DNA of 64,000 nucleotides from an uncultured virus (IMG/VR IMGVR_UViG_3300030044_000012). Its lineage: Duplodnaviria; Heunggongvirae; Uroviricota; Caudoviricetes. The notes beneath the pieces are model-generated. The model saw only the letters and a program-made list of their open reading frames with translations. It ran no database searches and had not been told where the DNA came from. Numbering within the stretch: position 1 is the stretch's first letter; the number at the start of each line of letters is the position of its first letter. Below are positions 559 to 57,457 of the stretch, piece after piece. Location: IMG/VR virus record IMGVR_UViG_3300030044_000012. One strand, given 5' to 3'. The translations under genes were made by a program, and so were the position numbers.

Positions 559-874
559 TCATCTTTCGTTGTAAAGAGCGGAGATAACTTCATTGGAGGG
601 GAGAATCGGTTCGATGGAGTCGGTCACGTAAGGCAGGTCGTGCTCACCTTCACAGCACAGCCAAGAACCGTCCGTAAACACGATGCGAAGCAGCTTGAAT
701 GTCACGTCCCCAAACTCTGCGGTAAACCGACCTTCTACATCTGCAATTTCTCTTCCGCAGAGTTTAGACACTAGTATGCTCTGGAGTCCTGCACTCAGGA
801 TTTCCGGGCACAGACTCCCATTCGATTAAGCCTGCTTGGTCAGCTAACTCCAAAACCCTTTTAAACAGGATCAT
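559..874 (-). pseudogene. Hypothetical phage protein apparently split by a frameshift (36-aa ORF from ATG 874 overlapping the 70-aa ORF 771-559)
   Basis: ATG 874 overlaps the ABC ATPase stop and reads MILFKRVLELADQAGLIEWESVPGNPECRTPEHTSV*. The ORF VSKLCGREIADVEGRF...EGEHDLPY begins in another frame at the same spot (AGTGTCTAAA). Confidence 0.4.
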
Positions 875-1746
875 AGGCTCCTGAACTCCTGCTTAACCTG
901 AGCTACAAACGCCATGAAGTCCGGGCGAAGTACAATGTCAGGTTGCCACGCCAGATTAAGGTCAATCAGGTTGTAGCTCTTGACGATGTAAGAACCATCT
1001 ACCGTGGCTCCAGAAGCGTCGTGGTCGCGTCCAAGCATCCAGATGTGGTCAGCGACCGCACAAGCGGCGGTAACGTCGTGTGTGACAACGATAACCGTGT
1101 TCAGGTCGTCCATGTTGGCTACCTGCTGGATCAGATGAGCCGTCTTTTCGAGGTTGATTGGATCAAGGCCGGAGAAAGGCTCGTCCATCAGGATGTAATG
1201 TGAAGAGCAGAGAATCTGTTGGATGATAGCGATGCGCTGACGCTGACCCCCCGACAAATCTTTCGGGTAAGCTAACAACTTGTCGGCCAGACCGAACTCT
1301 GTGAGGTACGCCATGATTTTGTCCATAGCGACTGATTTTGACTTCTCGACCTGCATCGCGGCCAGCATCAAGTTGCCCTTGATGGTGCGATGATAGAAGA
1401 GAGGGTAGCTCTGTGCGACCACACCAACATCCCCGGCATGGACTTCACATTTATCTTGTGTACAACCCTCGCGGCCACAATGACAGTTGTTGATGTAGAC
1501 GTGTCCGCTGGTGGCTTTTTTAAGACCGGCAATGATGCGGAACAACTGCGTCTTACCGATGCCCGAGGGGCCAAGGAAACCAACGACTTGCCCCTTCACA
1601 ATGCGGTTGCCTTGAGCGTCCGCACGATCAACTACAATGTCCTGAATCTGAGCGTTGACGTTCTTCAGGACTTGACGGTCGTAGCTGAGACAAACGTTGT
1701 CGATGGTAAGCAGTGCTTGCCCGAGATGGTATTCCATGGTTGCCAT
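871..1746 (-). CDS. ABC transporter ATP-binding protein (NitT/TauT/SsuB-like)
   Basis: Walker A GPSGIGKT, signature LSGGQRQR, Walker B/D-loop ILMDEPFSGLD, H-loop VTHD. Start MATMEY at 1746 is coupled to the upstream stop. Confidence 0.95.
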   Translation of the reverse strand: MATMEYHLGQALLTIDNVCLSYDRQVLKNVNAQIQDIVVDRADAQGNRIVKGQVVGFLGPSGIGKTQLFRIIAGLKKATSGHVYINNCHCGREGCTQDKCEVHAGDVGVVAQSYPLFYHRTIKGNLMLAAMQVEKSKSVAMDKIMAYLTEFGLADKLLAYPKDLSGGQRQRIAIIQQILCSSHYILMDEPFSGLDPINLEKTAHLIQQVANMDDLNTVIVVTHDVTAACAVADHIWMLGRDHDASGATVDGSYIVKSYNLIDLNLAWQPDIVLRPDFMAFVAQVKQEFRSL

Positions 1747-1928
1747 TATCGTTTCCCTTTCAGAACGGCCCACGATGAACCGCATGGGGCCGTATCAAAC
1801 CCACAACTTCGGAGTTGACCAGCCACCCACTCAGCTACCTGTTCCCTTGTCTGTGTTTTGAAGTGGTCGCTGTGGCTGTGCATAGTCAACGCCATCTCGA
1901 ACATGATGTCAATCAGCTTCTGTTCCAC
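1746..1928 (-). CDS. Small hypothetical protein
   Basis: 60-aa ORF overlapping both neighbours in the operon. Confidence 0.6.
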   Translation of the reverse strand: MEQKLIDIMFEMALTMHSHSDHFKTQTREQVAEWVAGQLRSCGFDTAPCGSSWAVLKGKR

Positions 1929-2253
1929 GACGACGCCGCTCCACTCTTACATGAACTCGATGATAAATCGGTTCCGACTTCAGGGTTAAAACCCCATCAA
2001 TGCTAATCACAACATCGGGGTGCTTCTTACAGAAGTAGTTCAACACAGTCTCCAGATTTTCAGCGACCTGTTTCGCGACTTCGGCTCGGTATTCAGCGAA
2101 GAACTCCCCCTCGGTTCTCATGGAGGGAGGCCAATCCCCTAACGTGTAGCCGTAAATCTCAGCGGTGTCTCCACCGTAGTTATTGGTTCCCTCATAGGCT
2201 TTGGTCAATTGGTGCCAGAGGTCTAAAGCCTGTTTCACAGACATGGAAAACAT
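1909..2253 (-). CDS. Hypothetical protein
   Basis: ORF track 1909..2436. Start moved to MFSMSVK (2253) to avoid overlap with the permease. Confidence 0.6.
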   Translation of the reverse strand: MFSMSVKQALDLWHQLTKAYEGTNNYGGDTAEIYGYTLGDWPPSMRTEGEFFAEYRAEVAKQVAENLETVLNYFCKKHPDVVISIDGVLTLKSEPIYHRVHVRVERRRRGTEAD

Positions 2254-2260
2254 TAGATGC

Positions 2261-3037
2261 TCATTTCTCTGCGTATGGGCAGAACAGGTTCTTCGTGACG
2301 CCGATAGCATAGTCCTGACCGACGCCAAGGATGAGAATACAGAGTTGAATTGCCATGATGTCGCCGAACCGGGCGTGCTTCTGCATAGTTTGAAGTACGG
2401 TGCCAACACCACCCTCGGAGAACACCACCGATTCAACCATGGTGAGCATCATCCAGCCCATGGCAGCAACCGTGCGGAGCACGTCGAATACTTTGTCAAT
2501 CTGGCCGAGGACGACTACTTCCCACACCACACGCCAGTCGCCCATACGCAAGGTACGAGCTAGGTCGTACTGCTCCTGCGGGATGGACTTGATAACATCC
2601 AGCATCGAAGTGATGAACCACACGCTGATAGAGAAGGTCAACATCGCGACCTTGACGGTGTGCGGGTTGGCAATCGCCACAGCGAAGGCAACTGAGAGCC
2701 CTGCCATTGACAAGAACCGGAGGTAAGTGGACATCATTACAACCGGCTTGAAGATAGGAACTACCGAGAGGTATGACAGTCCGAGAGAGATAACAATCGA
2801 CCAGAGGATGGCCTGAAGGTTCAGCATGTAGCTGATGATAAGTTGGGCACCAAGTCCCGCTGTCCACTGGTCTTGAAAGCAAGACAAGACCTCTGAAGGG
2901 TTAGGCAGCAGCGGTGAGGGGCTAAGCACCCAAGCTAGAGTGAGAGCCGCCACTGTCCCGGTCATGAGCATGAGAAAGGTTCTCTTGCTTGTAACTTTGA
3001 GCGGCGATACAAAACCAAAAACTTCTGTCGCGGTCAT
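2261..3037 (-). CDS. ABC transporter permease (NitT/TauT/SsuC-like)
   Basis: About six hydrophobic helices, EAA-like loop IPQEQYDLARTLRM, and WMMLTMVE...GGVG motif. Confidence 0.9.
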   Translation of the reverse strand: MTATEVFGFVSPLKVTSKRTFLMLMTGTVAALTLAWVLSPSPLLPNPSEVLSCFQDQWTAGLGAQLIISYMLNLQAILWSIVISLGLSYLSVVPIFKPVVMMSTYLRFLSMAGLSVAFAVAIANPHTVKVAMLTFSISVWFITSMLDVIKSIPQEQYDLARTLRMGDWRVVWEVVVLGQIDKVFDVLRTVAAMGWMMLTMVESVVFSEGGVGTVLQTMQKHARFGDIMAIQLCILILGVGQDYAIGVTKNLFCPYAEK

Positions 3038-3336
3038 GAAGCCCTCGCGTGCTTGAACACCTTAGCGAATTCCTCTGGTCGCTCAGCGTACTCCGCCAAG
3101 GTCTTCTCTCCCTTTGGAGTTATCCACCAAACCGCGTCTTTCGCCCCGTTGTTTCCAACGTGTTCGCCGCGAAGTTTAAGAGCACTAAGTGCCCAGCCAA
3201 CTTCGTACTTGATGGTGTGTTCAGTGGCTGTTGGATACATCTTGTGGATTGCGTCCTTGATAGCCTGACGCTTGGCACATCCGCCGAAAACAGCCAGAAC
3301 CTGCAAAATGGTGATACCAAAATCCCAACGTTTCAT
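3034..3336 (-). CDS. Stand-alone Mrr N-terminal-like winged-helix protein
   Basis: ILQVLAVFGG...EVGWALSALKLRG...VWWITPKG pattern typical of Mrr_N; SD GAGGGG before ATG 3336. Confidence 0.65.
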   Translation of the reverse strand: MKRWDFGITILQVLAVFGGCAKRQAIKDAIHKMYPTATEHTIKYEVGWALSALKLRGEHVGNNGAKDAVWWITPKGEKTLAEYAERPEEFAKVFKHARAS

Positions 3337-3448
3337 GGTCCCCTCAAGGATAGGGGAGGGTTTACCCCTCCCCCTGTATGGCTGCAACCAAGCCGGGTCG
3401 CTGCCAATCTAGTAGCTACCAAAAAGAATGACTTTCAAACTCTTTGGT

Positions 3449-4135
3449 ATGGACAACTTTTACGTGTACCAATATCTCAGAGAAGTAGATTCCGCCAACG
3501 GTGCGGCGGGTACCCCCTATTACATTGGCAAAGGCCGTGGCAAAAGAAAAACCTCAACCTCTCGAACAACACCGAAACCAACTAACCCGAAGTGTATCAC
3601 TCTTGTTGCTGAAAACCTCAGTGAGGCGAAAGCATTTGAACTTGAGAAGAAGCTAATCTCCGAGTACGGTCGCATTGATACCGGCACCGGCTGTCTTAGA
3701 AACTTTACCGATGGTGGAGAGGGTAACACAGGGTTCAAACCCTCTCCCGAACTGCGTGCCCTTTGGAGTGCCCAACGTAAAGGTAACCAACGCCTACTCG
3801 GATTCAAGTTCAGTGAAGAATCCAAAAAGAAAATGAGCGATGCCCGTAAAGGAAAAAAACGGTCTGCTCAATTCTGTGAAAACCTCAGTAAGGCACTCAC
3901 CGGAATTAAAAAATCACCAGAGACCTGCAAGAACATCAGTCTTGCCAAGGTTGGTAAACCAACCAAACCTAACAAGGGCAGAACCGGGCAGCACTGGACA
4001 GAGGATGACAAGAAAAAACAAGCCGAGTTCAAGACAACATGGTGGTCAGACAAACAGAACAAAATGAAGCAATCTGAAGGGATGAAAAAGTGGTGGGCTG
4101 AGAGACGTAATGCAACCAGCCCACCCGTCTCTTAA
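3449..4135 (+). mobile_element. Free-standing GIY-YIG homing endonuclease with NUMOD3-type repeats
   Basis: FYVYQY...PYYIGKG, conserved E and N (EKKLISEYG...LRNFTDGGEG), then SEESKKKMSDARKG / SPETCKNISLAK repeats. Antisense to the surrounding operon. Confidence 0.9.
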
Positions 4136-5949
4136 TTTTGCCCTATCTGAATTATCTCCACCCTACGGTTCTTCTCCTTGTTAGCCGCTGAATCGTTGGG
4201 GGCTACAGGGCCTTGAGAACCGTGACCTTCAACTGACTTGAAGCGGGTGCTGGGGAACTCACGACCCGCTGTCTGTTGCAGATACTGCCGAACCGTTTCT
4301 GCACGAGACTTGGACAACGGGATGTTCACCGTGTCAGAGCCTGAGTTGTCGGTGTAACCGTCAATCTGCAAAGCCAGACTCTTGGCGATGCTCAATTTCT
4401 CGGCCAGTTCAGCAAGCTGCTGCTTACCCTCCGGCGTCAACTTAGCAGAGCCAGTGGCGAAGCCAATGTGTACAGCATCCTTGCTGACCTGCGTACCCTG
4501 TGCGACTTCAGTCGAGTAGTCCACCTCTTCAGCCGGTGCCGATTGTGTACCTGCGTTGTTCAGCAAGTCCTGAGCCGACCGAATGAAGGACGTATCCACC
4601 GCATCCTTGTATGCCGGGATGGGGTTCTTCTTAGGGTCGAACAAAGTTGGATACTGCTCCACGTCGATACGAGCGAATGTCTCGTATGTGGCCTTCATGT
4701 TGTTCCCATAACCATCCGCCAAACCAAAATACTGAAGGTCGTCCTGAAGGTTGAATACAGCAGAACCACCGAGAGGCTGACTTGTTGCTTTGTCGCGTAC
4801 GCCCTTGGCATAGTTGAACCAGTAATCGGCTGTCTGGTCGTTGTAGACTTTGGTAGCGATTTCAGATGCCTTGTGCAGAGCCGCATCATACGCCTTGATT
4901 TGGTCAGAGGCTGTAAACGTTGCAGCCAAAAACCCAGTAACTTCATCGCGATTGGCATTGACGAACTTGTCGAGTGCAAGCAACACGTCGGGCATCTGTG
5001 CGGAGTATTCCTTGGACGAGATGATCTTCGCCGTACCAGACACACCATGCACAGCTTGTTCGTCACCCGGCGTCCAAGTCACGACACCATCCGGGCAGAC
5101 CTGTACAGTCTTACCATCGGGTTTGCCGTCGATGACTTCCTTACGTGACTCGCACTTATGCGGAATGTAAACATCGGTGACGGCCTTGATGTAGTCGTCG
5201 TCCGGGGCTGAAATCCAGTTCACCGCAGTAGGGTCATAGGTAGTCAGGTCAGGGTTGTTCTTGAGGTTGTTAAACCCCTCAAAAGCCAAAGCAATGTTCC
5301 AGTCACCGTCACGAATGACGCCAACGATAGTTTTGCCCAGCATAGATTTTGGGCTGTCTTTCCACTCCGCAGGACCGAGAAGGGCATCCTCACCATTGGA
5401 GCGACCGACAGCACCGTAAATCTTCAACTTGACGCCAAGTTTCTCCAACTGTGGGTCGAGGTCGGCAAGCCACTGACCAGCAGAGTCCCCCATGACAAGA
5501 ATGCCAACCACACCTGAGGTGCAAGTCTGGTCACCATCATGCAACTGCTTCGCACAAGCCAGAAGGTCTTTCTTCATCTGGTCGTTCGAGTCCTGCCGCG
5601 TGATGTGCAGGTTAACACCAAACTTCTCCATCAGAGAACCGGAAGTAGTGTCAGCCCCACCATTGGCGAGGAACACAGAGTTCTGCGCGTTCCACTCCCA
5701 CGCCTCGATGGGGAATGCGTTCGCGGAGATATGGACTGCACTGGTAGACGGGTACGGAAGTGGGGCCACACCCTGCACCTTCGCGTCTTCCTGCTTGGGC
5801 AGGTTGACCTTTGACGCGGTAACAGACTTCAAGATGCCCGGTGTGGGGATCAGACCATGTTGCATCGCGGTCCGAAGACCGAAGACAACAACAAGGACGC
5901 CTATGATTACCAAGAATGCCTTGGCTTGTGGTTTGATTCGAGTTGCCAT
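4132..5949 (-). CDS. Membrane-anchored periplasmic substrate-binding protein (PBP type II, NMT1/THI5-like) fused to a C-terminal OmpA-like peptidoglycan-binding domain
   Basis: N-terminal TM helix; central alpha/beta region (RSNGEDALL, WTPGD, QMPDVL); C-terminal OmpA_C motifs FATGSAKL, IDGYTDNSG, LSKSRAETVRQYL, GHG..PVAPN, NRRVEI; clustered with the permease and ATPase. Confidence 0.88.
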   Translation of the reverse strand: MATRIKPQAKAFLVIIGVLVVVFGLRTAMQHGLIPTPGILKSVTASKVNLPKQEDAKVQGVAPLPYPSTSAVHISANAFPIEAWEWNAQNSVFLANGGADTTSGSLMEKFGVNLHITRQDSNDQMKKDLLACAKQLHDGDQTCTSGVVGILVMGDSAGQWLADLDPQLEKLGVKLKIYGAVGRSNGEDALLGPAEWKDSPKSMLGKTIVGVIRDGDWNIALAFEGFNNLKNNPDLTTYDPTAVNWISAPDDDYIKAVTDVYIPHKCESRKEVIDGKPDGKTVQVCPDGVVTWTPGDEQAVHGVSGTAKIISSKEYSAQMPDVLLALDKFVNANRDEVTGFLAATFTASDQIKAYDAALHKASEIATKVYNDQTADYWFNYAKGVRDKATSQPLGGSAVFNLQDDLQYFGLADGYGNNMKATYETFARIDVEQYPTLFDPKKNPIPAYKDAVDTSFIRSAQDLLNNAGTQSAPAEEVDYSTEVAQGTQVSKDAVHIGFATGSAKLTPEGKQQLAELAEKLSIAKSLALQIDGYTDNSGSDTVNIPLSKSRAETVRQYLQQTAGREFPSTRFKSVEGHGSQGPVAPNDSAANKEKNRRVEIIQIGQN

Positions 5950-12012: not shown

Positions 12013-12056
12013 AAAAATTAAAATCCCCAGTTTAACTTAAGTAGTCAGACTGGGGA
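12013..12056 (-). terminator. Intrinsic terminator after the wHTH gene
   Basis: TCCCCAGT...ACTGGGGA stem followed by TTTTAATTTTT on the minus strand. Confidence 0.7.
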
Positions 12057-13860: not shown

Positions 13861-13894
13861 TAAATACCCTCATATCTTCAGTAATACTGAACTT

Positions 13895-21096: not shown

Positions 21097-24000
21097 CTAT
21101 AGCTCCTCAAGAGAGCCCCATTTGGAGGTTGTATCCAAGGGCTCGTCCTTCTTTTTAGTACCCGCTTTCTTTCCTTTTTGAAAGATCATTTGATAGTCTT
21201 TGTTGCCACGGGCCTTCTCAATCTGGCTACCTTCTAGGAAGGTCTTAACTCCAATGGACTTCACATGAGCCTTGAGCAGAGATATGTACTCCTCATCCGA
21301 GTTGCCAGCCTCCATACCAGAGTCAAGGTCAAGAAAAGCGTTGTCATCAAGGATACCAGCACTGTGGCTTTCCCCGAGGATTTTTTCAAAAACACCCTTT
21401 TTACCTTTGAGAGTTTCGATAGCATACTCATCGACCGTACCCTTCGCCACAAGAATGTGTAGAGTACAGGCGGAGTGAGGGGAGGCCATACGAACCATAC
21501 GACCCACAAGCTGAATAAGGTCACCCCACGACCATGGCAAATCAAGGCAGACTAAATGAGCGGCCTGTTGAAGGTTGATGCCTTCGATGCCAGCGGCGTT
21601 AATAACAATTAGGCTATGGTCGGGGCTTCCTTGAAACAGCCGTTTATTGTCATTCCGCTGCTTCTCATTCTCATTGCCGGTGATGCGGAGAAACTTACGG
21701 TTGGTGAAGTGCCCATCTTTGGTTAACTTCTCCAGCCGGTCGATCCACATTTTATACTTTGTGAAAACGATGACCTTTTCACCTGCGAGGTCACCATCCA
21801 GCATGTCCAGCAATGCCTCTTCCTTGGGGCTCAGCTTGGTCGTGTAGAAGTCCTTGAGATTGGCGGGGTCTAGGAGGCCCGGATGGTTCGCGACAAGCTG
21901 CTGTACGCTCAACTGGGTCATCATGTTGGTTACATCACGTTCGCACTCGTGAAGGTCACCAGAAGCATCCTTAATGAGCGCCGGGGGCAGGATAAACACC
22001 CCATTCTTGATGTCCTCAAGAAGATCAATCTGCTGGTCGGTAAGGTCGAGTGGGTGGTATACAGTCGAGAGACGGGGCAGGGGCTCCTTCACCTGACGCT
22101 GGCTACGGCCAAGAAAGAAGGGACGAATACCCGCCTTGAACTTGGGGATGTTCTGATAGCCGACGAGCACCATCTTCTTACGGCCAGCCCCGATGTACTG
22201 AGGACGCATAATGCAAAACTCTTCCACAAACTCAGGCATCAAACCAAAGGGGCAAATGCCAAGAGCCGTTGCGACAGCATAGAATTCGTTGAGGGAATTC
22301 TTCATGACTGTAGCCGTCAACCCCCACACCCTGTCAGCCTGACGAGATATGCTGAAAACAAGATTACGGATGGCGGTTCCTGTGCCTTTGAACTTGTGGC
22401 ACTCATCAAAGACAAGGATCAACCGTTCCTTATTCTTCTTGAATATATTAGTAAAGAATCTTACATCCTGACTTTCAAGTTCCTTCCCATTCTTAACCGG
22501 GTTGCCTTCAGAATCAAACTGCCCCTTAACTTTCTTACGGGTGCCTTTGATGGAATCATACTTAACAATCATCACGTCCTTCTTGTCCCCGCTGAAGAAA
22601 CGTTCCATCTGAGCGTACCGGGCCTCGGATGATCCCAGCCCTTGGTATTTATCCTTCATGACGAACGGGCGTAGATGACTGAAACGTAGGAACTCGTCTC
22701 TCCACTGGTACGTGTTATGTGTGACGATGTGCCCGTCAGTTACGTACAGCCCGCGTTTTGCTGATGTGCTAATGCATTGAACGGTCTTCCTGCCGAGTAG
22801 CTCCACACTCTTTATAGAGCGGCACAGTTTGGGTAGGCTCCACTTGCTGGCCTTACGTGTAAGGTAGAAAGGGTTGAAAGGAGTTTGAATGGTCACAACC
22901 CATTTCGGGTAAGCACTTAAAATGAGTTGGGGTTTGCCTCTAACTTCAGTTTTGCTTACTTTGGGGGTCTGAGGAGTTGGTTGTATAGCTACAATCCCAC
23001 CTAGTGAGCGTGCAAGGGAAACTACATCATCCCTAAGCCCCACTGAAGTGGTATGAAAAGTACATTGCCCTGAATCGCTGCACGACCCATCCGAATCCAT
23101 TAAACCCCTGAGTAGTCCAATTCGATTCTCCACCGAGCTTCTAAGGTAACTTTCAGGTATGCGCTTATTTGGAGATTTATGCCCGAAGACGCCAATCTCT
23201 TTTAGAGAGTCCATGAAACCATTCATCCCCCCACAGTTGGATTGAACGATAGCGTACTGGCCTGAACCTCGCTCGGTTATGTAGTAAGGAGAGGGTAGTT
23301 CATCGGCTACCCGCGTTGGAATTTCCCTGTCTTCTGAGTAGAATATCGCTCCGTGGCGTAATGACCCATCTCCCAAAAGAATACCCAATGTATAGGCCGG
23401 AACGGGGGTATTTCCAATACTTGAAAATTCAACCGGAGAGGTAATCGGTAACCTGTAGCTATAAGCCGGAGCAGCTTTACCATACTTATAGGTGACGCCG
23501 TGCTTCAGTATCTCTTTCAGGCTTATCGTCTTAAATCTACCCGACCTCCTCAGATGGAGGGTCTGAACTTCCCAGAGGTGATCGGCGCAGCATTCCGTGG
23601 ACTCACCATCAGTGGTCGTGACACGGTACACATCTTTCTCGCCTTGAGGATGGACTCCCAAGACATGGGAAATACCTCCATCTGGGTCTACTAGGCGAGA
23701 GCCCACCGCCATGTCTCCCATGGACTTCCATCCTTCAGGGGTCAATATCTTAGCGTCCAAAGGCTGTGCTGTACTCTTGGTCGTAACGATAACTACCTTA
23801 TAGTCGGGCTTACGTTGCTTTAGCCACGCGGCGGCGGCAATACAGTCTAAACTTTTACCAAGTCCAACAGCATCCCCATTGATGAATTTATTCATCCGGG
23901 TTAGATGGTGAATCATTTGTAACTGGTATTGACGTAAATCAAGTGGGACGCCTGAGTCACAGTCGTTGTCGATGTCCCAAATTGTCTTGCGAAGGAGGTC

Positions 24001-24159
24001 AGGCCATTTAAAGGGGATGGGGTTGTGGATCACCCCAGCGTCATCCCGCTGAATGTCCCACTTACGAACTGCAAAAAGCCTCTCCAGTGTCTCCGGGTTA
24101 AGTCCCTTCAAAGTAGTGTAAGTAGTTATAAGGGGACACTGGACGGGCTCTTCGCTCAT
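21097..24159 (-). CDS. SNF2-family (SF2) helicase/ATPase containing an intein
   Basis: LRQYQ, GDAVGLGKS (motif I), FDECH (II), GLTAT (III), KVIVFT, GIEGINLQ (V), QLVGRMVR (VI). Confidence 0.93.
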   Translation of the reverse strand: MSEEPVQCPLITTYTTLKGLNPETLERLFAVRKWDIQRDDAGVIHNPIPFKWPDLLRKTIWDIDNDCDSGVPLDLRQYQLQMIHHLTRMNKFINGDAVGLGKSLDCIAAAAWLKQRKPDYKVVIVTTKSTAQPLDAKILTPEGWKSMGDMAVGSRLVDPDGGISHVLGVHPQGEKDVYRVTTTDGESTECCADHLWEVQTLHLRRSGRFKTISLKEILKHGVTYKYGKAAPAYSYRLPITSPVEFSSIGNTPVPAYTLGILLGDGSLRHGAIFYSEDREIPTRVADELPSPYYITERGSGQYAIVQSNCGGMNGFMDSLKEIGVFGHKSPNKRIPESYLRSSVENRIGLLRGLMDSDGSCSDSGQCTFHTTSVGLRDDVVSLARSLGGIVAIQPTPQTPKVSKTEVRGKPQLILSAYPKWVVTIQTPFNPFYLTRKASKWSLPKLCRSIKSVELLGRKTVQCISTSAKRGLYVTDGHIVTHNTYQWRDEFLRFSHLRPFVMKDKYQGLGSSEARYAQMERFFSGDKKDVMIVKYDSIKGTRKKVKGQFDSEGNPVKNGKELESQDVRFFTNIFKKNKERLILVFDECHKFKGTGTAIRNLVFSISRQADRVWGLTATVMKNSLNEFYAVATALGICPFGLMPEFVEEFCIMRPQYIGAGRKKMVLVGYQNIPKFKAGIRPFFLGRSQRQVKEPLPRLSTVYHPLDLTDQQIDLLEDIKNGVFILPPALIKDASGDLHECERDVTNMMTQLSVQQLVANHPGLLDPANLKDFYTTKLSPKEEALLDMLDGDLAGEKVIVFTKYKMWIDRLEKLTKDGHFTNRKFLRITGNENEKQRNDNKRLFQGSPDHSLIVINAAGIEGINLQQAAHLVCLDLPWSWGDLIQLVGRMVRMASPHSACTLHILVAKGTVDEYAIETLKGKKGVFEKILGESHSAGILDDNAFLDLDSGMEAGNSDEEYISLLKAHVKSIGVKTFLEGSQIEKARGNKDYQMIFQKGKKAGTKKKDEPLDTTSKWGSLEEL
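22714..23769 (-). mobile_element. Class 3 intein (352 aa) with LAGLIDADG homing endonuclease
   Basis: Begins AQPLDAKILTPEGW (Ala1); block B CCADHLW; LAGLIDADG motifs LGILLGDGS and LRGLMDSDGS; block F VQCIS; ends VTHN followed by Thr+1. Removal restores motif Ia VTTKST/TYQWRDE. Confidence 0.93.
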
Positions 24160-27071: not shown

Positions 27072-27113
27072 AAAACACCTCTGCCCCCTTAATACTCGGA
27101 ACAGAGGTGTTTT
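27072..27113 (-). promoter_or_regulatory. 12-bp hairpin that sequesters the SD and holds an AGTATTA motif in its loop
   Basis: AAAACACCTCTG-N18-CAGAGGTGTTTT directly followed by ATG 27071. Confidence 0.6.
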
Positions 27114-29674: not shown

Positions 29675-30136
29675 TTAGCCGAGTAATGCGTACGCGGTGC
29701 CGCGTACGTGAGGGTGATTGTGATAGTCAGAACCGAGAGAGGTTTCAAGTTCCCAACGGATTTGGTCGTGCTCACAATCGTTCTGCTCGTAGGCCAGAGA
29801 GCCATAGACACAACGCCAGAGCGGCCAGATGGTCACAGCCGGGGCGAGTAGTTGGAAGACCTCTTCGGCCTTAGCCTGTGTGCGTTCCCAGCCCCAGCGA
29901 TACAGATGACCGGCCTCGTCGGCGGCGACCATAAAATAGCGGGTCTCGTAGACTTCACCACGAGGGTTGTCCATGTCGGCGTACTCAGGGTCGCGACGGG
30001 CGACAATCTCCTCCGAGTCAACGTAGAAGGTGTATTTGACGCTAGGTGTGGGGGTGGGGGTGACAGCCATAAGGTCAGCCACTTGGAAGTAGCGTTCGGC
30101 GGCGAGGTAGTTGATGTCACACTGATAATATCCCAT
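29675..30136 (-). CDS. Hypothetical protein (predicted leaderless)
   Basis: ATG 30136 lies 6 nt after TATACT. Confidence 0.65.
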   Translation of the reverse strand: MGYYQCDINYLAAERYFQVADLMAVTPTPTPSVKYTFYVDSEEIVARRDPEYADMDNPRGEVYETRYFMVAADEAGHLYRWGWERTQAKAEEVFQLLAPAVTIWPLWRCVYGSLAYEQNDCEHDQIRWELETSLGSDYHNHPHVRGTAYALLG

Positions 30137-30142
30137 ACCTGT

Positions 30143-30190
30143 AGTATACCTGCCTTCCATCTGTTTTGGATAGTTTTTGAGAAAAAATTT
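30143..30190 (-). promoter_or_regulatory. Class A promoter (TATCCA-N18-TATACT)
   Basis: 18-nt spacer, A-tract upstream. Confidence 0.75.
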
Positions 30191-30212
30191 GGGCTGACCG
30201 AAGCCAGCCCAA
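30182..30212 (-). terminator. Intrinsic terminator
   Basis: TTGGGCTGGC-TTCG-GTCAGCCCAA followed by ATTTTTT. Confidence 0.75.
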
Positions 30213-30217
30213 GGAAA

Positions 30218-30760
30218 TTACCGCAGGGAGAGAGACGAGGAGAACGATTCGACCGAGGTGTTTTCCTTGCGAATCTGCAAGGAGCAAGCCGCCGACACCA
30301 CGTTGATAAACACCAGCACACCCAAGGAAAGGTAAGTCAGTTCCTTGATGTGGACGAAGGTAAGGATGCCCTCCATGAGAAGAGTGAATCCAGCGGCCTT
30401 TACCTTGCTGCCGAAGGCTGCGGTCGCCCAGTTGAACACGGTCGGGGCCGAGTACAGAAGGCCACCAGCCACCAAAAGCCAGAGCATTGGGTAGGTCGCA
30501 ACGCCCAGCGGGTGGTGGATGATGACGTAGGTAGAAATTGGAATTGCACCACCGAGGACGGAGCCGACTACCGCAGCCAGACGAGCACCGGGCATGAAGG
30601 CACGACGAACCTGCTGAATAACCGTCAGCCGCTGAAACTGCTCATAGCTGAGGGTCTTGGCGGGAGCGGACTTGGTCGTCTTGCTGACCGTCTTGCTCTT
30701 GCGGGGGCTGGACTTCGCTACGCTGCGCTCACGGGGGAAGGTTACGGGGCTGGTTGCCAT
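30218..30760 (-). CDS. Multi-pass membrane protein with basic N-terminus
   Basis: About four TM segments; SD GAGGAG. Confidence 0.75.
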   Translation of the reverse strand: MATSPVTFPRERSVAKSSPRKSKTVSKTTKSAPAKTLSYEQFQRLTVIQQVRRAFMPGARLAAVVGSVLGGAIPISTYVIIHHPLGVATYPMLWLLVAGGLLYSAPTVFNWATAAFGSKVKAAGFTLLMEGILTFVHIKELTYLSLGVLVFINVVSAACSLQIRKENTSVESFSSSLSLR

Positions 30761-30782
30761 GTCAGTATATCTCCTCATTCAC

Positions 30783-30830
30783 AGTATACCGAGGAGACCA
30801 CTGTTTTGGATAGTTTTTAAGAAATTTTTT
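30783..30830 (-). promoter_or_regulatory. Class A promoter (TATCCA-N18-TATACT)
   Basis: Upstream part near-identical to the copy at 30143-30190. Confidence 0.75.
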
Positions 30831-33006: not shown

Positions 33007-34320
33007 TTACTCACCCTTCCCTTCCACATAGTAACGGTCATCGCGGCCAAACGGACGTACAAGCTTCCACAGTGCCTCGTGCGCTTCAGCCTCACGCTCA
33101 TTGTAAAGCAGAATAGCCACCGAAACAATGTCATGGTTGAAGTCTTGAGTCTTCAACCAATCCTTACGAGCCACATCGTTCTTGAATCCGCCGTACACTT
33201 CGTTAAGGCCAGCGTCCTCCTCAAGACGACGCAGGAGTTCCACCGCCTTAATAGCTTTCACAAGGTTCTCATGAAACGCCTTGGTGAGCCCCCGGTGCCA
33301 CTGCTTGACCCATGCAGCGAACTCAGCAGGTACAGACATCGAGTGAGTCACCTCACCAGTCTTACGGTTGAATTGAGAGTCCATCGCCAACCAAGGATTC
33401 ATTGGAAGGGCGAACTCTTCCCAAATCATTTGAGGCGTGAGCCCCGTCAGAATTTTGTGAAGCCGCTTGTACTCCGACAACTTAATCTTGGCCTTAACCG
33501 GGGGCAGACCATGCCGGTTGACAGAGACAACATACCCTTCCTCTTCCTTCGAAGGGTCAGCCTCAGCAGTTGCAATGTCGATATCGAACTTCTCAACAAG
33601 GCGGCACCACGGCTTACCCGGCTTCAGGTTGCCATCAGCATCCATCGTCTTCGAGTATGAGTTGAGGTTCACCCACAACTCGTGCAACTGCTCGTAAGAC
33701 ATTTCCTCGCCGGTCTCGTTGTTCACCGCCGTCAACAAGCACAAACCCTCCCACTCATACGGCACCACGATGCGAAGATGCTTCGCGATGATTTCGAAAA
33801 TGAGAGTCCAGCCATTAGGCACAAAATCCTTGGCCGCACCGTACTTGACAAACTTCTGCCATTTCTCGGTCGCGAACTTCGCCCCATCCGATTCGAACGA
33901 ACCACGAGTTGAGATACCCCACTGGTCACCGTAGTTCCAAAGCACACCCATCTGGCCGTCCATCTTGCGAGTGATGGTCAGGGGACGCCGGAACACGTCC
34001 ATGTAGTTCTTGACGAACGCCTCATCCACCATTACGTTCTCTTCCACCACCGGGCGTCCCGAGGCGACACCTGCGATAATGGTGGAAGCCTGACCAAGGT
34101 TAAAAAATTTATACTGACTACGGGATACAACCTCATCCTTGTCATCGAGAATCAAGCCCCGGCACTGGCAAACCTCGTGGGGCCAGAATTGCTCAAATTG
34201 AGCACTTGCAGTGTAGTTGAATATACGGAGAGGGAGCGTTGGGTGTTTTCGCACGGAAATATAACCCGCGTCGATGTATTCTTTCAATTTGTCAAAGTCG
34301 AGCAAATTGTTAACCAGCAC
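33007..34320 (-). CDS. RNA ligase, T4 Rnl1-like
   Basis: FNYT, CRGLIL, KFFN, motif I KMDG, STRGSF, FEII, EEGYVV, KIK. Confidence 0.92.
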   Translation of the reverse strand: MLVNNLLDFDKLKEYIDAGYISVRKHPTLPLRIFNYTASAQFEQFWPHEVCQCRGLILDDKDEVVSRSQYKFFNLGQASTIIAGVASGRPVVEENVMVDEAFVKNYMDVFRRPLTITRKMDGQMGVLWNYGDQWGISTRGSFESDGAKFATEKWQKFVKYGAAKDFVPNGWTLIFEIIAKHLRIVVPYEWEGLCLLTAVNNETGEEMSYEQLHELWVNLNSYSKTMDADGNLKPGKPWCRLVEKFDIDIATAEADPSKEEEGYVVSVNRHGLPPVKAKIKLSEYKRLHKILTGLTPQMIWEEFALPMNPWLAMDSQFNRKTGEVTHSMSVPAEFAAWVKQWHRGLTKAFHENLVKAIKAVELLRRLEEDAGLNEVYGGFKNDVARKDWLKTQDFNHDIVSVAILLYNEREAEAHEALWKLVRPFGRDDRYYVEGKGE

Positions 34321-34961
34321 TGTGAACCTCTTCGATTTTCGATTCGTTCGTACCAGTCGGATAACCAGCGTCGAATCTCATCTAGGGTCAAATCATTCTT
34401 GACCACATTCGCCTTGTAGGTACAGAGAACTACATTTTCCCTCGTGTACCCTAACTCAGGTGAAATCTTATCAACCGACAACGACTGCTTACTGTGCCCC
34501 CTACCTCTGACCATTTGAAATGGTTCATCGGTGTAAAAACAGAGACCGTTCTGAAAATTGTACAGTGCTACCAAATACTCCCACGAGAGGTCGAACGGTA
34601 ACCCTTTCTTCTTAGCGGCGGATTTCAAAGTGGAAGCTTTGTGTTTCATGTAGGCTTCCAGTGAACTGTTTAACCGCTCTTCCGTGCGACGATACTCGCA
34701 AAATTTACACTGAGGCTCTCTGACTAATCCTCGCCCTCGGCGGGGCCGTTCAATGAAATCCTCTTCGTTTCGCTCATGTCCACAATTCGAACAAAGCGCC
34801 TTACCATTTACAACCTGCAAATTAAATAGGTGGCGACCGACCGCTTTGATACCATTCCTGCGACGGATACCACCTACTGTGCTTTTTGGAATACCCAACT
34901 CACGAACAATATCCCGGTCGTTCTTTCCCGCTGCAAGTAACTCTAAAACTTTGTCAACCAT
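34284..34961 (-). mobile_element. Free-standing HNH-like homing endonuclease with N-terminal HTH and zinc finger
   Basis: HTH (DIVRELGIPKSTVGGI), CSNC...CKFC, QNGLCFYT...SVDKISPELGYTRENVVLCTYKAN; sits between pnk and the ligase. Confidence 0.8.
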
Positions 34962-35013
34962 ATCGAACCTCTAACTAAGGATTCGATATTGGCTAAAAAC
35001 TTGTACTATGACC

Positions 35014-36087
35014 CTAAAAATCCTCTAGTGCCTGACAATCGGGGCACCGTCTATACCCCTCGCGGTCGGCGTAGGAGCAGCCATCCCGATGCACTGTGGT
35101 GAACTCCTCAGGTGTGAGGAACTCGCCGCCATAGACCGGGCGAACCGGAACTCCTGCTTCCATCCAGCAACCCTGCACAACCCGAGGCCGGTCGTCCACA
35201 ACAAAGACAATCTGTTCCTTCGGGAAGTACGCGAGAAGTTCCCGCAGTATTTCCTGCTTCACAGGAACGTCCGACGAATTGTCGAAGCTGTGACGCATGA
35301 ACAGCCCGTCACGCGGAACCTCGTACTTGTCCAGCCATGCATTCGTGGCATCACCACAAGTGCTCTTGCGACCGGAGACAGCGAACATCAACACGTTCGG
35401 CTGCGTGTACAAGTTCTGAAGTTCGTGGATGATGTTCAAATACGGCCTGTCCACTTCCACATTCAGACCGTACGGGGAGCGCAAAGAACGCCCCTGTTCG
35501 TCCATGTGGCTGGCAACCGTGCCGTCGATGTCGAAGAGGTAGACCGAGGTCTCTGGGTTCAGCTTGTTGAACGCCGGATGACGACCACTCATCAGGAACT
35601 GACGCTCAATCACACCCCGGCCTACATGAGCCAAACCTGTCCGCAACGCATCACGCCGGACGCACTCGTCCATCTGAGTATCCATGCGATAGATGCGGAA
35701 TGCCGCCTTGTGGTTCGCGAAGTGCTCCCACTTGTCAACCGTGTTCGGGTTCAGGTGGGTATTGTCAACCACCACATTCACATCCTGAGAAAGAGCATGA
35801 GCCGCACGAGCGCGTTCGACCTTGGAGACGAAATCCTCAAAGTCCCGACCAGAAACACCACCCTTGAAATTGCGGGGGATAAACACCCCGGCTTCCTTGA
35901 TTGCAACCTCTTCCTGCAATGCGGCACGGAATGCGGCATCCTTCACAGCCGGAGCAAGTTCGATACGAAGGTCATCGCGATTGACGCGAACATACCCCTT
36001 CGCAACGTAGTCCTTAGCCACTGTGCTCTTGCCGCTACCCGATTCTCCGATGAGGAGAAGTAGTTCCCTTGTGTGTCCCTTAGCCAT
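35014..36087 (-). CDS. Polynucleotide 5'-kinase/3'-phosphatase (T4 PseT-like)
   Basis: P-loop GESGSGKST, RDDLR, VVDNT; HAD domain FDIDGT, VSGR, K, VDDR. Confidence 0.93.
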   Translation of the reverse strand: MAKGHTRELLLLIGESGSGKSTVAKDYVAKGYVRVNRDDLRIELAPAVKDAAFRAALQEEVAIKEAGVFIPRNFKGGVSGRDFEDFVSKVERARAAHALSQDVNVVVDNTHLNPNTVDKWEHFANHKAAFRIYRMDTQMDECVRRDALRTGLAHVGRGVIERQFLMSGRHPAFNKLNPETSVYLFDIDGTVASHMDEQGRSLRSPYGLNVEVDRPYLNIIHELQNLYTQPNVLMFAVSGRKSTCGDATNAWLDKYEVPRDGLFMRHSFDNSSDVPVKQEILRELLAYFPKEQIVFVVDDRPRVVQGCWMEAGVPVRPVYGGEFLTPEEFTTVHRDGCSYADREGYRRCPDCQALEDF

Positions 36088-40017: not shown

Positions 40018-40048
40018 GAAAACGACCTGAGAATTTTTCTCAGGTCGT
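40018..40048 (-). terminator. Intrinsic terminator
   Basis: ACGACCTGAGAA/TTCTCAGGTCGT 12-bp stem followed by TTTCATTT. Confidence 0.7.
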
Positions 40049-40071
40049 CCTTGGATTAACCCGTTAACACC

Positions 40072-50690: not shown

Positions 50691-50734
50691 GCTACCAAAC
50701 CCAGTATTAGGGGTAAATAAGGAGGGTTTTTACC

Positions 50735-54910: not shown

Positions 54911-54922
54911 TAAGATGCTCCT

Positions 54923-56146
54923 TTATTTACGTTCAGATTGCTTCTCTTTACGGCGAGAGGCGTGCCATTTCTTCAAACCTTCAATCATCTTCTCCTTGTT
55001 TTTTTCGGAGAGGACTCTTTTCTTCTTCACCTTAACCTTGGATTCCGGTAGACGGTTTTTATTCTTCCGGGGACGACCACGGCGTTTGGGAGCCACTTGA
55101 CCTTTCTTAGGTTCAGGTATCTCCTCTTCACTACTTAATACTGGAATTTTCAGATTTGGATCAATTTCTGATATTTGTTGAGCGGAAAATTTGTACGTCT
55201 TTCCGTACTTGTTAATGACCTCTCGGTAGTTTGATATATTAGGGTCTATCTGGCGGAAGTAATCCCGCATCAAGTGGTCTTTCACGATGCAGTAAATGAT
55301 GAAATAATTCTTGGGGACTTTGATGTCTCCAGTCTTTAGTGCCTCAACCACCTTACGGCAAATCTCCATTGGATCATGCTGGTTCTCAATCAAAATGAGG
55401 CGTTTAACCAAAGCAGTCACTGTCTTCTGTCGCGAATGCCGCTTAGGTTCCGGAGAGTGCTCTTCTTGAATATGTGAGGGAGAGGAGACATCTTCAAGCT
55501 TCAAGTCTTCTTCGATCAACTTTAACCCTATGGCCCCTTGGTCAATAATCAACCCTTCTACCAATGGACAGAAGTAGTACACCCGCTCGTTGGCAGGTAC
55601 ATGGGAAATGTTAAGAAGATTGCGGAGAGGTGTTTCGAGAAGTATACTCTTGGTTTTGAGGTTGATTCGAACAATAGCTTTGCCATCTCCGATGGCTTCT
55701 ACGACACCACAATAATCGCGAGTGTCACCGTTCAAAACCCGCACAAAGGAATCCACTTCAATCCCCACACCGCGATTGAGGAACTCCTCTTCTGCTTGAA
55801 CAATAAGACTTTGAACATAAGCGTCGTCAACCGGGATAGCCTTTGAGGGTCGGTTAGAGTCTCCCTCAGTTACGAGGGATACAACTCCGGTTATGGTCTT
55901 CAATCGAAGGAGACTGGAGAAACTGGTACTGCGAACAAACACATAGCAGCCAGTCTTCATCTCAAAAACGTCTAAGTCACGTTTGAACACCGGAATGAAT
56001 ATTTCAATGGGATCATTACGGAAAATGTTGGGAATAGCTTTCCCAATTCTACGCATCGTGGGTTCAATGGTTTTCTCGCTTCTGAGTTCAACCATGAACC
56101 AAGGCTCACTTTGTAATTTCGAAACATCGCCATATTCAAGTATCAT
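54923..56146 (-). CDS. NusG-family transcription factor (NGN+KOW) with long C-terminal extension and AT-hook
   Basis: WFMV...IEIFIP...GCYVFV...ITGVVSLV...IPVDD (NGN); VRVLNGDTRDYCGVVEAI...AIVRI (KOW); PKRRGRPRK. Confidence 0.82.
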   Translation of the reverse strand: MILEYGDVSKLQSEPWFMVELRSEKTIEPTMRRIGKAIPNIFRNDPIEIFIPVFKRDLDVFEMKTGCYVFVRSTSFSSLLRLKTITGVVSLVTEGDSNRPSKAIPVDDAYVQSLIVQAEEEFLNRGVGIEVDSFVRVLNGDTRDYCGVVEAIGDGKAIVRINLKTKSILLETPLRNLLNISHVPANERVYYFCPLVEGLIIDQGAIGLKLIEEDLKLEDVSSPSHIQEEHSPEPKRHSRQKTVTALVKRLILIENQHDPMEICRKVVEALKTGDIKVPKNYFIIYCIVKDHLMRDYFRQIDPNISNYREVINKYGKTYKFSAQQISEIDPNLKIPVLSSEEEIPEPKKGQVAPKRRGRPRKNKNRLPESKVKVKKKRVLSEKNKEKMIEGLKKWHASRRKEKQSERK

Positions 56147-56199
56147 TTATATAATCCAAGTCAGAAACACACAAGCCCATCAGCTTAATACTGCATTTT

Positions 56200-57327
56200 T
56201 CAGTTGTTGAGAAACTTATCGAAATCATGCTGTTCTATCAATGAGCTACCGTCCTTCTTGACAGGCCGAGAAGAGGCACTAGTTGAAGTCTCTGAAGTGT
56301 TGAGAAGTTCATAAACAACCAAAGGTAGAGCATCGGCGGGTAGATTGGTATTGGACAACCACTTAACAAAGATGGAGTCTATAGCAGCCACATTGGGAAG
56401 CCGAAGGGCAATGTTATAGTAGGGAGTACCCGGCTCTGCCCACGGCGTACGGGCGTAAATAGAGAACAATACTTCGATTACCCTACTTGTACTATAGTTC
56501 CGTCCTGCCTCATCTATATACTTCACCGCCTCGACCTGATTATCCTCGATGATGGACTCATAGCACTTCAAACACAGGTCTTCGAGGTTATCATGCAAAG
56601 CATCTTTGACGATGCCGACTGTAATTGCCCCCATGGACGCCACTATACCCAGCCATTTTACGGCGTCTCTTACAATACCTTTGGATTTTTGGGCGATGTG
56701 CCGCAGAGCGTCATGCTCGTACTGAAGATCATTCTGATTTGCCAGATTAACTAACAGGCCAAAGATAAGATCAACATGAACCCGTTCAAAATAGAGAGGA
56801 GTGAGACGGCTGACGATGTTAGGTGGAACGCTCTCAGGTTGGTTGGAAACGAAGATGAAGATGCTGGAGGTATCCTTGGCTTCAGTCGGCTTCAGGTATA
56901 CATCCCATGCTTCTTTGGATAGCTGATGAGCCTCGTCTATGATGATGACCCTCCGCTTAGACATAGCGGAGGGTGGAGAATTCATCACATCCATCAAATT
57001 ACGAGCGTTCTCTACACCGGAGGTTGAGGCCGCATCCACCTCTGAGAAATCGGCTGACAGATTTAAACCCCGTTCGATGTCTTCAGCCTTATCAATGAAC
57101 GTGCAAGAAGGGCACTTTCCACAGCCTAGAGGATCACTGCCCGTACACATAAGGGCACGAGCTAGTAGGTAGGCACATGTGGTCTTCCCGACCCCTACAG
57201 AGCCTTGAAAGAGGTAACCACGAGGCATGAACCTTTCGGTCTTAAGGATGCAGCCAAGGAGCTTTACCGCCCGTTCCTGCCCCACCACTTCTACCCAATA
57301 GTTTGGCCGATTGGCGATTAGATTCAT
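56200..57327 (-). CDS. dnaX: DNA polymerase III gamma/tau-like clamp-loader ATPase
   Basis: RP..W.EVVGQ, GSVGVGKTT, C...CGKCPSC, EVDAAS..GVE, IIDEAHQLS, IVSR, G.VRDA. Confidence 0.88.
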   Translation of the reverse strand: MNLIANRPNYWVEVVGQERAVKLLGCILKTERFMPRGYLFQGSVGVGKTTCAYLLARALMCTGSDPLGCGKCPSCTFIDKAEDIERGLNLSADFSEVDAASTSGVENARNLMDVMNSPPSAMSKRRVIIIDEAHQLSKEAWDVYLKPTEAKDTSSIFIFVSNQPESVPPNIVSRLTPLYFERVHVDLIFGLLVNLANQNDLQYEHDALRHIAQKSKGIVRDAVKWLGIVASMGAITVGIVKDALHDNLEDLCLKCYESIIEDNQVEAVKYIDEAGRNYSTSRVIEVLFSIYARTPWAEPGTPYYNIALRLPNVAAIDSIFVKWLSNTNLPADALPLVVYELLNTSETSTSASSRPVKKDGSSLIEQHDFDKFLNN

Positions 57328-57457
57328 GTCACCTGATTCTCTTCATTGTAATACCGCGTCCCAGCCCCATGTGAAAGAAATGGGGCGCAAGAAACCCAAG
57401 CCGGATGCCCGAGTCCATCACCAGCCACATACAAAACTTACCCCACAGATTGAACAC

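Follow-up and report, generated by a model that had tools for sequence, protein, structure and literature searches.

A divergent phage protein of the NusG fold with a family-specific helical domain and an AT-hook tail, and its possible action on host RNA polymerase

Why should a phage encode a NusG-like protein of its own, and why should that protein end in a DNA-binding motif? This question is raised by a gene at 54923..56146 on the minus strand of a stretch of 64,000 nucleotides (nt), here called the window, from an uncultured virus of the Caudoviricetes (IMG/VR record IMGVR_UViG_3300030044_000012). A preliminary description of this DNA, made from the letters alone, had read the product as a NusG paralogue with complete NGN and KOW domains, an extra helical domain, an acidic linker, an AT-hook and a basic tail. 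It had proposed that the protein tethers host RNA polymerase (RNAP) to phage DNA and drives read-through of the long minus-strand gene arrays. The open reading frame (ORF) was found exactly as described, with 407 open codons and a stop (protein P0001). Residues 1-17 are conserved throughout the family, with G6 and W16 nearly invariant in the family alignment (A1), and the start is therefore placed at M1, the ATG at 56146. The database call P0002, of 390 amino acids (aa), begins at M18 and was rejected as too short, given this conserved N-terminus.

To judge from structural models and profile comparisons, the protein is a very divergent member of the NusG/Spt5 family in which an NGN domain is followed by a KOW domain. 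An AlphaFold2 model built on 33 relatives (mean predicted local distance difference test score, pLDDT, 80.0; predicted template modelling score 0.49) is confident over residues 1-218, 237-337 and 381-406, and the ten-residue blocks of the first of these regions mostly reach 81-94. When the PDB was searched with this model using Foldseek, 29 matches were obtained at E<=0.001, the best 28 of which are all NusG, RfaH or Spt5; the top match is 9a56_B (E 2.4e-8) and RfaH is represented by 8phk_P (E 2.0e-5). The NGN-like domain comprises residues 1-125 (55772..56146), an extra short strand and helix (residues 1-12) preceding the fold itself. Aligned with VIA-align, model residues 13-120 gave Z 10.2 against the NGN of Escherichia coli NusG (6c6u_N; root-mean-square deviation 2.2 Å, 96 of 98 residues aligned), Z 8.4-9.2 against the NGN domains of Thermus thermophilus, Mycobacterium tuberculosis and archaeal Spt5, and Z 8.4 against that of RfaH (6c6t_D), full RfaH scoring 8.8. 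The KOW domain (residues 128-182, with FVRVLNGDTRDYCGVVE; 55601..55765) is modelled as a five-strand beta-barrel, a single predicted state of a domain that might also switch its fold, and its model residues 124-180 matched the KOW of E. coli NusG (2jvv) by the same tool with Z 8.2 and a deviation of 1.6 Å over 57 of 59 residues.

A profile of 38 family sequences also matched E. coli NusG in hhalign (probability 91.7%, E 7.8e-7), residues 67-171 falling on NusG 67-172 over 101 columns. In this register the KOW glycines G147, invariant in alignment A1, and G140, nearly invariant (>=90%), stand opposite NusG GPFADFNG, and K164, at a position held by lysine or arginine, stands opposite NusG F165. 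Since F165 is central to the contacts of NusG with Rho and S10, the surface of the phage KOW domain probably differs from that of NusG. Twelve of the 13 weak PDB profile matches at E<=10 are NusG (best hmmsearch E 0.11), and among 150 family members the Pfam models NusG, KOW and KOW5_SPT5 are touched by 6, 5 and 11, respectively, at E<=0.01. In addition, BFVD contains other phage proteins of the same fold, named NusG or RfaH, all of them short. The complete NGN and KOW of the preliminary description are thus borne out, by structural and profile-profile methods only (Foldseek, VIA-align and hhalign).

Beyond the KOW domain a motif VPxxxRVYY(F/Y) (residues 183-193, V189 and Y191 being invariant), just after which the short family members end, is followed in the model by a hairpin of two helices (194-203 and 205-216); motif and hairpin are encoded by 55493..55600. 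A first linker, acidic and with pLDDT below 50 (residues 219-236, 55439..55492), leads to a helical C-terminal domain (residues 237-337, 55136..55438), and a second acidic linker, SSEEEIPEPKKGQVA (residues 338-352, 55091..55135; pLDDT below 50 at 338-351), brings SSEEEIPE in front of the AT-hook. Residues 186-345 folded alone with 64 sequences reached pLDDT 90.1, with about 98 within the helical domain, and the AlphaFold check that had been suggested for the extension thus gives a confidently folded domain between disordered linkers. Foldseek of this domain alone against the PDB gave a best E of 2.7 and no fold match, VIA-wide gave a best Z of 6.0, under the noise level that the tool states for helical models, and the ESM Atlas gave no usable match with residues 186-345. 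On these results the domain is treated as family-specific, since no solved structure resembles it convincingly. Winged-helix-like rows (cullin WHB 5.2 and 4.9, RecX 4.4, MecI 3.9 and Orc1/Cdc6 3.9) were discarded as noise-level, and no fold was assigned from them.

A hidden Markov model (HMM) of the helical domain matches 195 of 270 fetched proteins, a sample enriched for close relatives of the query. Complete NGN and KOW domains are found in 100 of the 149 listed 50%-identity representatives other than the query, and among these 100 the helical domain is present in 48, absent from 50 and intermediate in two. The extra domain that had been claimed is therefore present and conserved in about half of the homologues. 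Representatives without it are mostly 169-282 aa long, with four that bear an N-terminal extension of 220-265 aa instead (P0260, P0263, P0266 and P0269; 411-457 aa), in which NGN and KOW lie at the C-terminus and the extension has no Pfam match. Eleven members of 462-590 aa (P0126, P0135, P0137, P0139, P0140, P0148, P0154, P0156, P0158, P0163 and P0168) carry two copies of the helical domain in tandem, and the domain therefore behaves as an independent unit that can be duplicated. In one metagenome homologue of 755 aa (P0122) about 370 aa of inserted sequence, weakly matching intein splicing, interrupt the domain, and the two halves of the HMM fall at 235-286 and 658-708.

The AT-hook PKRRGRPRK (residues 353-361, 55064..55090) has the R-G-R-P core with basic flanks and lies in a disordered stretch (353-379, pLDDT below 50); Pfam AT_hook reported no match in the protein, as is usual for a motif this short. 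The pattern [KR][KR]RGRP[RP] follows the helical domain in 35 of the 195 domain-bearing relatives, and because this core is kept while the neighbouring residues vary the hook is more than a chance motif. The remainder, residues 362-407 (54926..55063), is basic (19 lysines and arginines against 6 aspartates and glutamates), with an amphipathic basic helix predicted at 381-406 (KRVLSEKNKEKMIEGLKKWHASRRKEK; pLDDT 75-81), and a helix of the type NKxKMIxGLK accompanies the hook in 27 of the 35. The canonical hook, the acidic linker and the basic tail were thus correctly recognised from the start, and the conservation pattern indicates that the hook is real, selected and specific to its clade.

As a feature of the whole family the hook does not stand, most relatives having a Cys/His-rich tail, helix-turn-helix (HTH) motifs or no tail. 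Among the 195 domain-bearing members, 66 have at least four cysteines in the tail (CGECxHxRxxH...C...PCxCKRFKEK) and 111 have an arginine-rich motif of the DGR[ST] type (consensus EVCKDGRSREAR). The tail of P0143 carries two HTH motifs (HTH_38, 30.2 bits against a cut-off of 27), and that of P0189 an HTH_17-like stretch which at 19.1 bits is below the cut-off. A search with the tail alone (residues 345-407) returned 19 matches, all 19 of them family members, and the module was not seen elsewhere within the range of 223-713 aa. From these sequences the recurrent theme would be a flexible linker that carries a nucleic-acid-binding element of one kind or another at its end, and the motifs of the tail suggest that it may bind DNA. 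The idea that the hook replaces the widespread DGRSREAR motif in situ was ruled out, as P0023 and P0029 carry both at different positions. A phmmer search of the PDB with the Cys-rich P0037 touched, with its tail, LIM domains only at E 0.9-1.8, and this was not used as evidence.

On which polymerase would such a protein act? Five records of related phages were searched, namely the deposited complete genome of phage Tunturi 5 and four IMG/VR genomes (three 100% and one 99% complete by CheckV). In these five there is no match to RNAP beta (PF00562, domain 6) or beta' (PF00623, domain 2), and the model for T7-type RNAP (PF00940) gave one sub-threshold match (E 0.02); sigma-70 region 2 is present in two of them. 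For Tunturi 5 itself, Table S3 of the Tunturi paper gives two sigma factors but no RNAP. With no RNAP match in five related genomes and sigma factors in two, the host RNAP is the likely target, as the preliminary description had supposed. Moreover, a complex prediction of residues 1-190 with residues 200-360 of E. coli beta' gave an ipSAE of 0.34 (0.32-0.41 over three runs) against 0.00 for the best of three controls, the runs having at least 93% of their contacts in common and a partner pLDDT of at least 77. Of the 157 solved complexes used for calibration 116 reached the mark, as did 2 of 215 mismatched pairs; at ipSAE <=0.60, the band of the present score, only 18 of the 157 solved complexes passed and both of the passing mismatches were found.

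What is shown here is the fold, the family, the domain layout and its conservation, and that no RNAP was detected in the related phages; that the protein binds RNAP, acts in antitermination and attaches to DNA through its tail is inferred. That the protein is a phage-encoded elongation or antitermination factor of the NusG type, acting on host RNAP, we hold at about an even chance. The NGN domain would bind the clamp helices of beta' in the elongating host RNAP and would displace or exclude host NusG. The polymerase would then be less prone to pausing and termination and could read through intrinsic terminators, and probably Rho-dependent ones, in the long phage arrays; the KOW barrel is kept, with the lysine or arginine at the F165 position implying that Rho is probably not recruited. 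The helical domain may serve as a new module for protein or nucleic-acid contacts, and the C-terminal end as an exchangeable nucleic-acid tether, made in this clade of one AT-hook and a basic helix, which could hold the factor on AT-rich duplex DNA beside the polymerase with low sequence specificity. The fuller proposal, that this is a phage-specific NusG lineage whose duplicable helical domain and interchangeable tails tether the elongating host RNAP to the phage template, is offered as a tentative one, with the balance tilted against it. If true, it would represent DNA-tethered processive antitermination in huge soil phages that have sigma factors and no polymerase, a functional parallel to the DNA clamp of eukaryotic Spt5.

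Terminator-like hairpins through which such a factor might read are present in the window. The three sites that had been named all hold minus-strand hairpins with U-runs resembling intrinsic terminators, at about 12013-12050 (z -4.45), 30182-30212 (z -2.92) and 40018-40050 (z -4.31), and no hairpin of this kind follows the NusG-like gene itself (z -0.01). The hairpin at 30182 lies inside a plus-strand ORF of 322 aa (29852-30820) that has no family match and may not be a gene.

Several results weigh against action as an antiterminator on host RNAP. The protein itself matched no Pfam family at E<=10, only two chance-level rows were returned from PHROGs, with nothing usable, and the 38-sequence profile that found NusG gave no significant match to E. 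coli RfaH in hhalign (0.26%, E 0.23); the protein is therefore not closely related to RfaH, which among antiterminating paralogues has been studied best. The only cultured relative, gp25 of Tunturi 5, ends in an acidic tail of 13 residues and has neither AT-hook nor basic helix. Many family members have no tail and half have no helical domain, and since they are missing in so many members neither of these parts can be essential for the core activity. The extension is accordingly conserved in part only of the homologues: the helical domain is retained in about half of them, and the hook is clade-specific. A phage RNAP of very divergent sequence could go unnoticed with the three Pfam models, and the search covered the records of the five related phages. 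The beta' prediction, in which E. coli stands in for the host, may reflect the likeness of the model to solved NusG-RNAP complexes and lends weak support. Finally, the NusG-like gene comes last in a conserved replication block, behind the ATPase, primase, exonuclease-like, Nudix and clamp-loader genes, a position that fits a role linked to replication as well as one in transcription.

This last point is the basis of the first of four other explanations, in which the protein links transcription with the replisome or sliding clamp of the phage, or handles conflicts between replication and transcription, and is not a general antiterminator. Late transcription in phage T4 is clamp-activated. The clamp-loader gene lies directly upstream on the same strand (56200..57327; PHROG 5846, E 5.1e-42; Pfam DNA_pol3_delta2, 1.9e-22), and in 25 of 29 related loci, several of which are near-duplicates, the NusG-like gene likewise comes after a clamp loader in the same orientation; the block is also seen in the annotation of Tunturi 5. 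However, gene order within phage modules is weak functional evidence, four of the loci (L012, L019, L020 and L031) have no clamp-loader neighbour, no clamp gene was found in the window by Pfam, and no clamp-binding motif was identified by eye, no dedicated tool having been run. We regard this explanation as improbable.

Another explanation places the protein at initiation, where it would act with a phage sigma factor in the manner of CarD and bind A/T-rich DNA near promoters. A compact promoter-like motif with an A-tract does exist. The window has 13 copies of the heptamer AGTATTA where 3.96 would be expected (none of 100 shuffles reached 13), with 7 or 8 of the 13 sites in intergenic DNA, which makes up 9% of the window; in the 403 kb of the window and 22 related loci together, 55 copies lie on the gene strand and 10 on the opposite strand. 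At the 55 sites A is found at positions -8 to -5 in 27, 32, 34 and 38 cases, respectively, and C at -1 in 32, and a G-rich, Shine-Dalgarno-like stretch lies 9-11 nt downstream. The predicted element AAAA-W-Y-C-C-AGTATTA is probably a promoter class of this phage group. One copy, AAAAATGC-AGTATTA (56186..56200, minus strand), lies in the 53-nt intergenic gap 39 nt upstream of the ATG of the NusG-like gene; others are at 13882-13888 (-), 27090-27096 (-), 50703-50709 (+) and further places. A sigma-70 consensus scan of 46-64 kb was uninformative, with 26 promoters found against 20.0 +/- 4.9 expected.

The order of an acidic linker and then an AT-hook, which resembles HMGA-type tails, and the sigma factors of the relatives also fit an initiation activator. 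Nevertheless the pairing of hook and A-tract, on which the preliminary description had leaned, is not supported: the A-tract is real and at a fixed spacing, but the AAAA-N4-AGTATTA class is equally present before the homologous gene of L007, L009, L010 and L014, where the encoded proteins end in Cys-rich tails without an AT-hook, while the AT-hook relatives L004 and L005 have no motif within 60 nt upstream of theirs. Being a fixed part of the motif, present with or without a hook, the A-tract is not evidence for targeting by the hook. Moreover, 66 runs of at least eight A or T occur in the 64-kb window, 15 of them intergenic, and a single hook would therefore give little specificity; it more plausibly confers a DNA affinity of low specificity. 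No CarD_TRCF_RID domain was detected in the protein (Pfam, E<=10), its N-terminal fold being NGN, and NGN domains bind elongation complexes once sigma has left. An initiation-level activator is thus no more probable than a replication-linked factor.

Some further observations concern the motif. It is also found in the related loci L007, L009, L010, L013, L014, L024 and L031, and in L007, L009, L010 and L014 AGTATT[AG] ends 6-7 nt before the ATG of the NusG-like gene; if it is a -10 element there, the mRNA would be leaderless or nearly so. A second copy, TGAAAATTCC-AGTATTA, lies inside the NusG-like gene (55136-55153, minus strand) over the codons for KIPVLS, about 225 nt upstream of the next gene. 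It is kept at the same codon position in L005, L013 and L014 and not in L007, L009-L012, L016 and L028, and it may be a promoter for the downstream genes or a coding coincidence.

A third explanation is host shut-off, in which the protein would compete with host NusG on all elongation complexes and uncouple the transcription of host genes from translation and Rho, without any particular gain for read-through of phage operons. As it has the same NGN fold as NusG it would use the same binding site, and the lysine opposite F165, the residue through which NusG reaches Rho and S10, would suit this role. Nothing computational separates host shut-off from antitermination on phage genes, but a positive role accords better with a tail that tethers to DNA and with the terminators found within the phage arrays, and we consider shut-off rather improbable. 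The least probable explanation is that the NGN/KOW scaffold has been reused away from RNAP, for contacts with ribosome, RNA or the DNA-packaging machinery, with the basic tail as a nucleoid-type binder of DNA or RNA: the KOW-like barrels of ribosomal proteins and NdhS do score as high as the NusG KOW (Z 8-10), Pfam does not recognise the NGN domain and the helical domain has no known fold, but NGN and KOW together in NusG order and register are a family signature, and the complex prediction, weak as its support is, favours beta' over the controls.

If the reading as an elongation factor on host RNAP is taken, the protein can be set beside several known systems. It shares with E. coli NusG (6c6u, 2jvv) the two-domain core, in order and register, at about 15-21% identity in structural alignments, and is not recognised by Pfam. 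It differs in having 12 extra residues at the N-terminus and about 225 at the C-terminus, the latter comprising the helical hairpin, the new helical domain, the AT-hook and the basic helix, and in lying beside a clamp loader and not in a secE-nusG-rplK operon. To our knowledge NusG is the sole transcription factor conserved in all cellular life, and specialised NusG paralogues are the main known route by which mobile DNA escapes termination-based silencing. Like RfaH, LoaP, UpxY, TaA and ActX, the phage protein would be a second, element-encoded factor of the NusG fold, of which one would expect that it promotes read-through of long operons that move horizontally; unlike RfaH, to which it has no significant sequence link, its KOW domain is modelled as a beta-barrel and not as an alpha-hairpin.

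Eukaryotic and archaeal Spt5, chains of which are among the Foldseek matches, is likewise an NGN and KOW factor with added C-terminal modules and has domains with the role of a DNA clamp, but the additions are further KOW domains and a repeat region in place of a helical bundle or AT-hook. CarD of Myxococcus xanthus consists of an RNAP-binding domain followed by an acidic stretch and AT-hooks, in an HMGA-like arrangement. The likeness to the phage protein is one of logic only and no homology is claimed; CarD has another RNAP-binding domain and several hooks, and acts at initiation. In the parts consulted of a 2021 review of NusG (PMC7819879), no C-terminal helical domain or DNA-binding tail is mentioned for specialised paralogues, and plasmid paralogues are mentioned without any encoded by phage. 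In the same source DII, an extra domain gained by NusG of Thermotoga maritima, is described as a presumed aid to recruitment or stability; this domain is an insertion in the NGN and not a C-terminal helical domain, and the corresponding structure (2xhc) aligns with the phage model only via NGN and KOW.

The only phage record with a homologue is that of Tunturi 5, a 309-kb jumbo phage of Tunturiibacter (Acidobacteriota). Its gp25 (XOB77468.1, 344 aa) is 46.7% identical over residues 1-345 (E 1e-97) and has the same layout of NGN, KOW and helical domain and the same clamp-loader neighbour; it differs in the short acidic tail already noted. In GenBank gp25 is labelled "transcription antiterminator", a label that according to Table S3 of the Tunturi paper derives from the structure-based pipeline Phold; neither "antiterminat" nor "NusG" occurs in the main text of that paper. 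This existing label weakens the suggestion of a possible new mode of transcription takeover. The NusG identity is not new, homologues having already been labelled automatically as NusG or antiterminator; what is new is the family-wide architecture, the helical domain and the swappable tails. In literature listings and abstracts on phage-encoded, AT-hook or jumbo-phage NusG we found no study of such a protein. The family would be a large, phage-only branch of NusG with at least 160 clusters, a new conserved domain and swappable DNA-binding ends, an architecture which suggests that huge phages dependent on the host polymerase re-tool the elongation phase and not promoter choice alone. With Tunturi 5 and its host Tunturiibacter psychrotolerans available in culture, this idea is directly testable.

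With regard to occurrence, a word-indexed search gave 220 relatives, and among the best 120 of these 11 are named "transcription antitermination factor NusG" by the Joint Genome Institute (JGI). An exhaustive search of 50%-identity representatives gave 160 clusters at E<=0.001, of which 120 reach E<=1e-10 and 75 reach E<=1e-30, and this sets the size of the family at a minimum of 160 clusters at that identity. Many of the relatives lie on contigs of 300-463 kb, and the protein of the window itself on one of 310 kb, while the short members (about 190 aa, NGN and KOW) are on contigs of 1-48 kb; two single-protein scans of IMG/VR and two scans of metagenome contigs for the short members found nothing. 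The family is so far confined to viral or metagenomic contigs. No relative was found when 185,579 reference prokaryote genomes were scanned with the family alignment, a scan that used two peptide patterns only and has limited sensitivity, and at the nucleotide level no phage record was matched by megablast with 50-60 kb of the window. Many peat metagenome runs hold the stretch 54923-56146, and the phage seems to be widespread in peat. Contigs from one peat RNA library cover 54920-55117 and 55830-56101 without differences, which is a hint of transcription only, DNA carry-over being possible; they leave 55187-55771 and 56123-57400 uncovered, which says nothing either way.

The remaining contents of the window are those of phage DNA and include, besides the clamp loader, genes for a primase, an SNF2 helicase with an intein, thymidylate synthase, dCMP deaminase, RNA ligase and polynucleotide kinase. 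The SNF2/helicase protein (1020 aa; 21097-24159, minus strand) is interrupted by an intein-type homing endonuclease, with matches to LAGLIDADG_3 and Hom_end at residues of about 334-401 and the SNF2 domain split over 90-760. Phages mend cleaved tRNAs with pairs of RNA ligase and kinase, and an RNA repair pair of this sort lies at 33007-36087 (minus strand), where a T4 Rnl1-type RNA ligase (PF09511) and a polynucleotide kinase/phosphatase (HAD_PNKP and AAA_33) have one ORF (34284-34961) between them. At the start of the window (871-5949, minus strand) are found genes for an ABC-transporter ATPase, a binding-protein-dependent permease component and a 605-aa protein with an OmpA domain, which are an unusual cargo for a phage.

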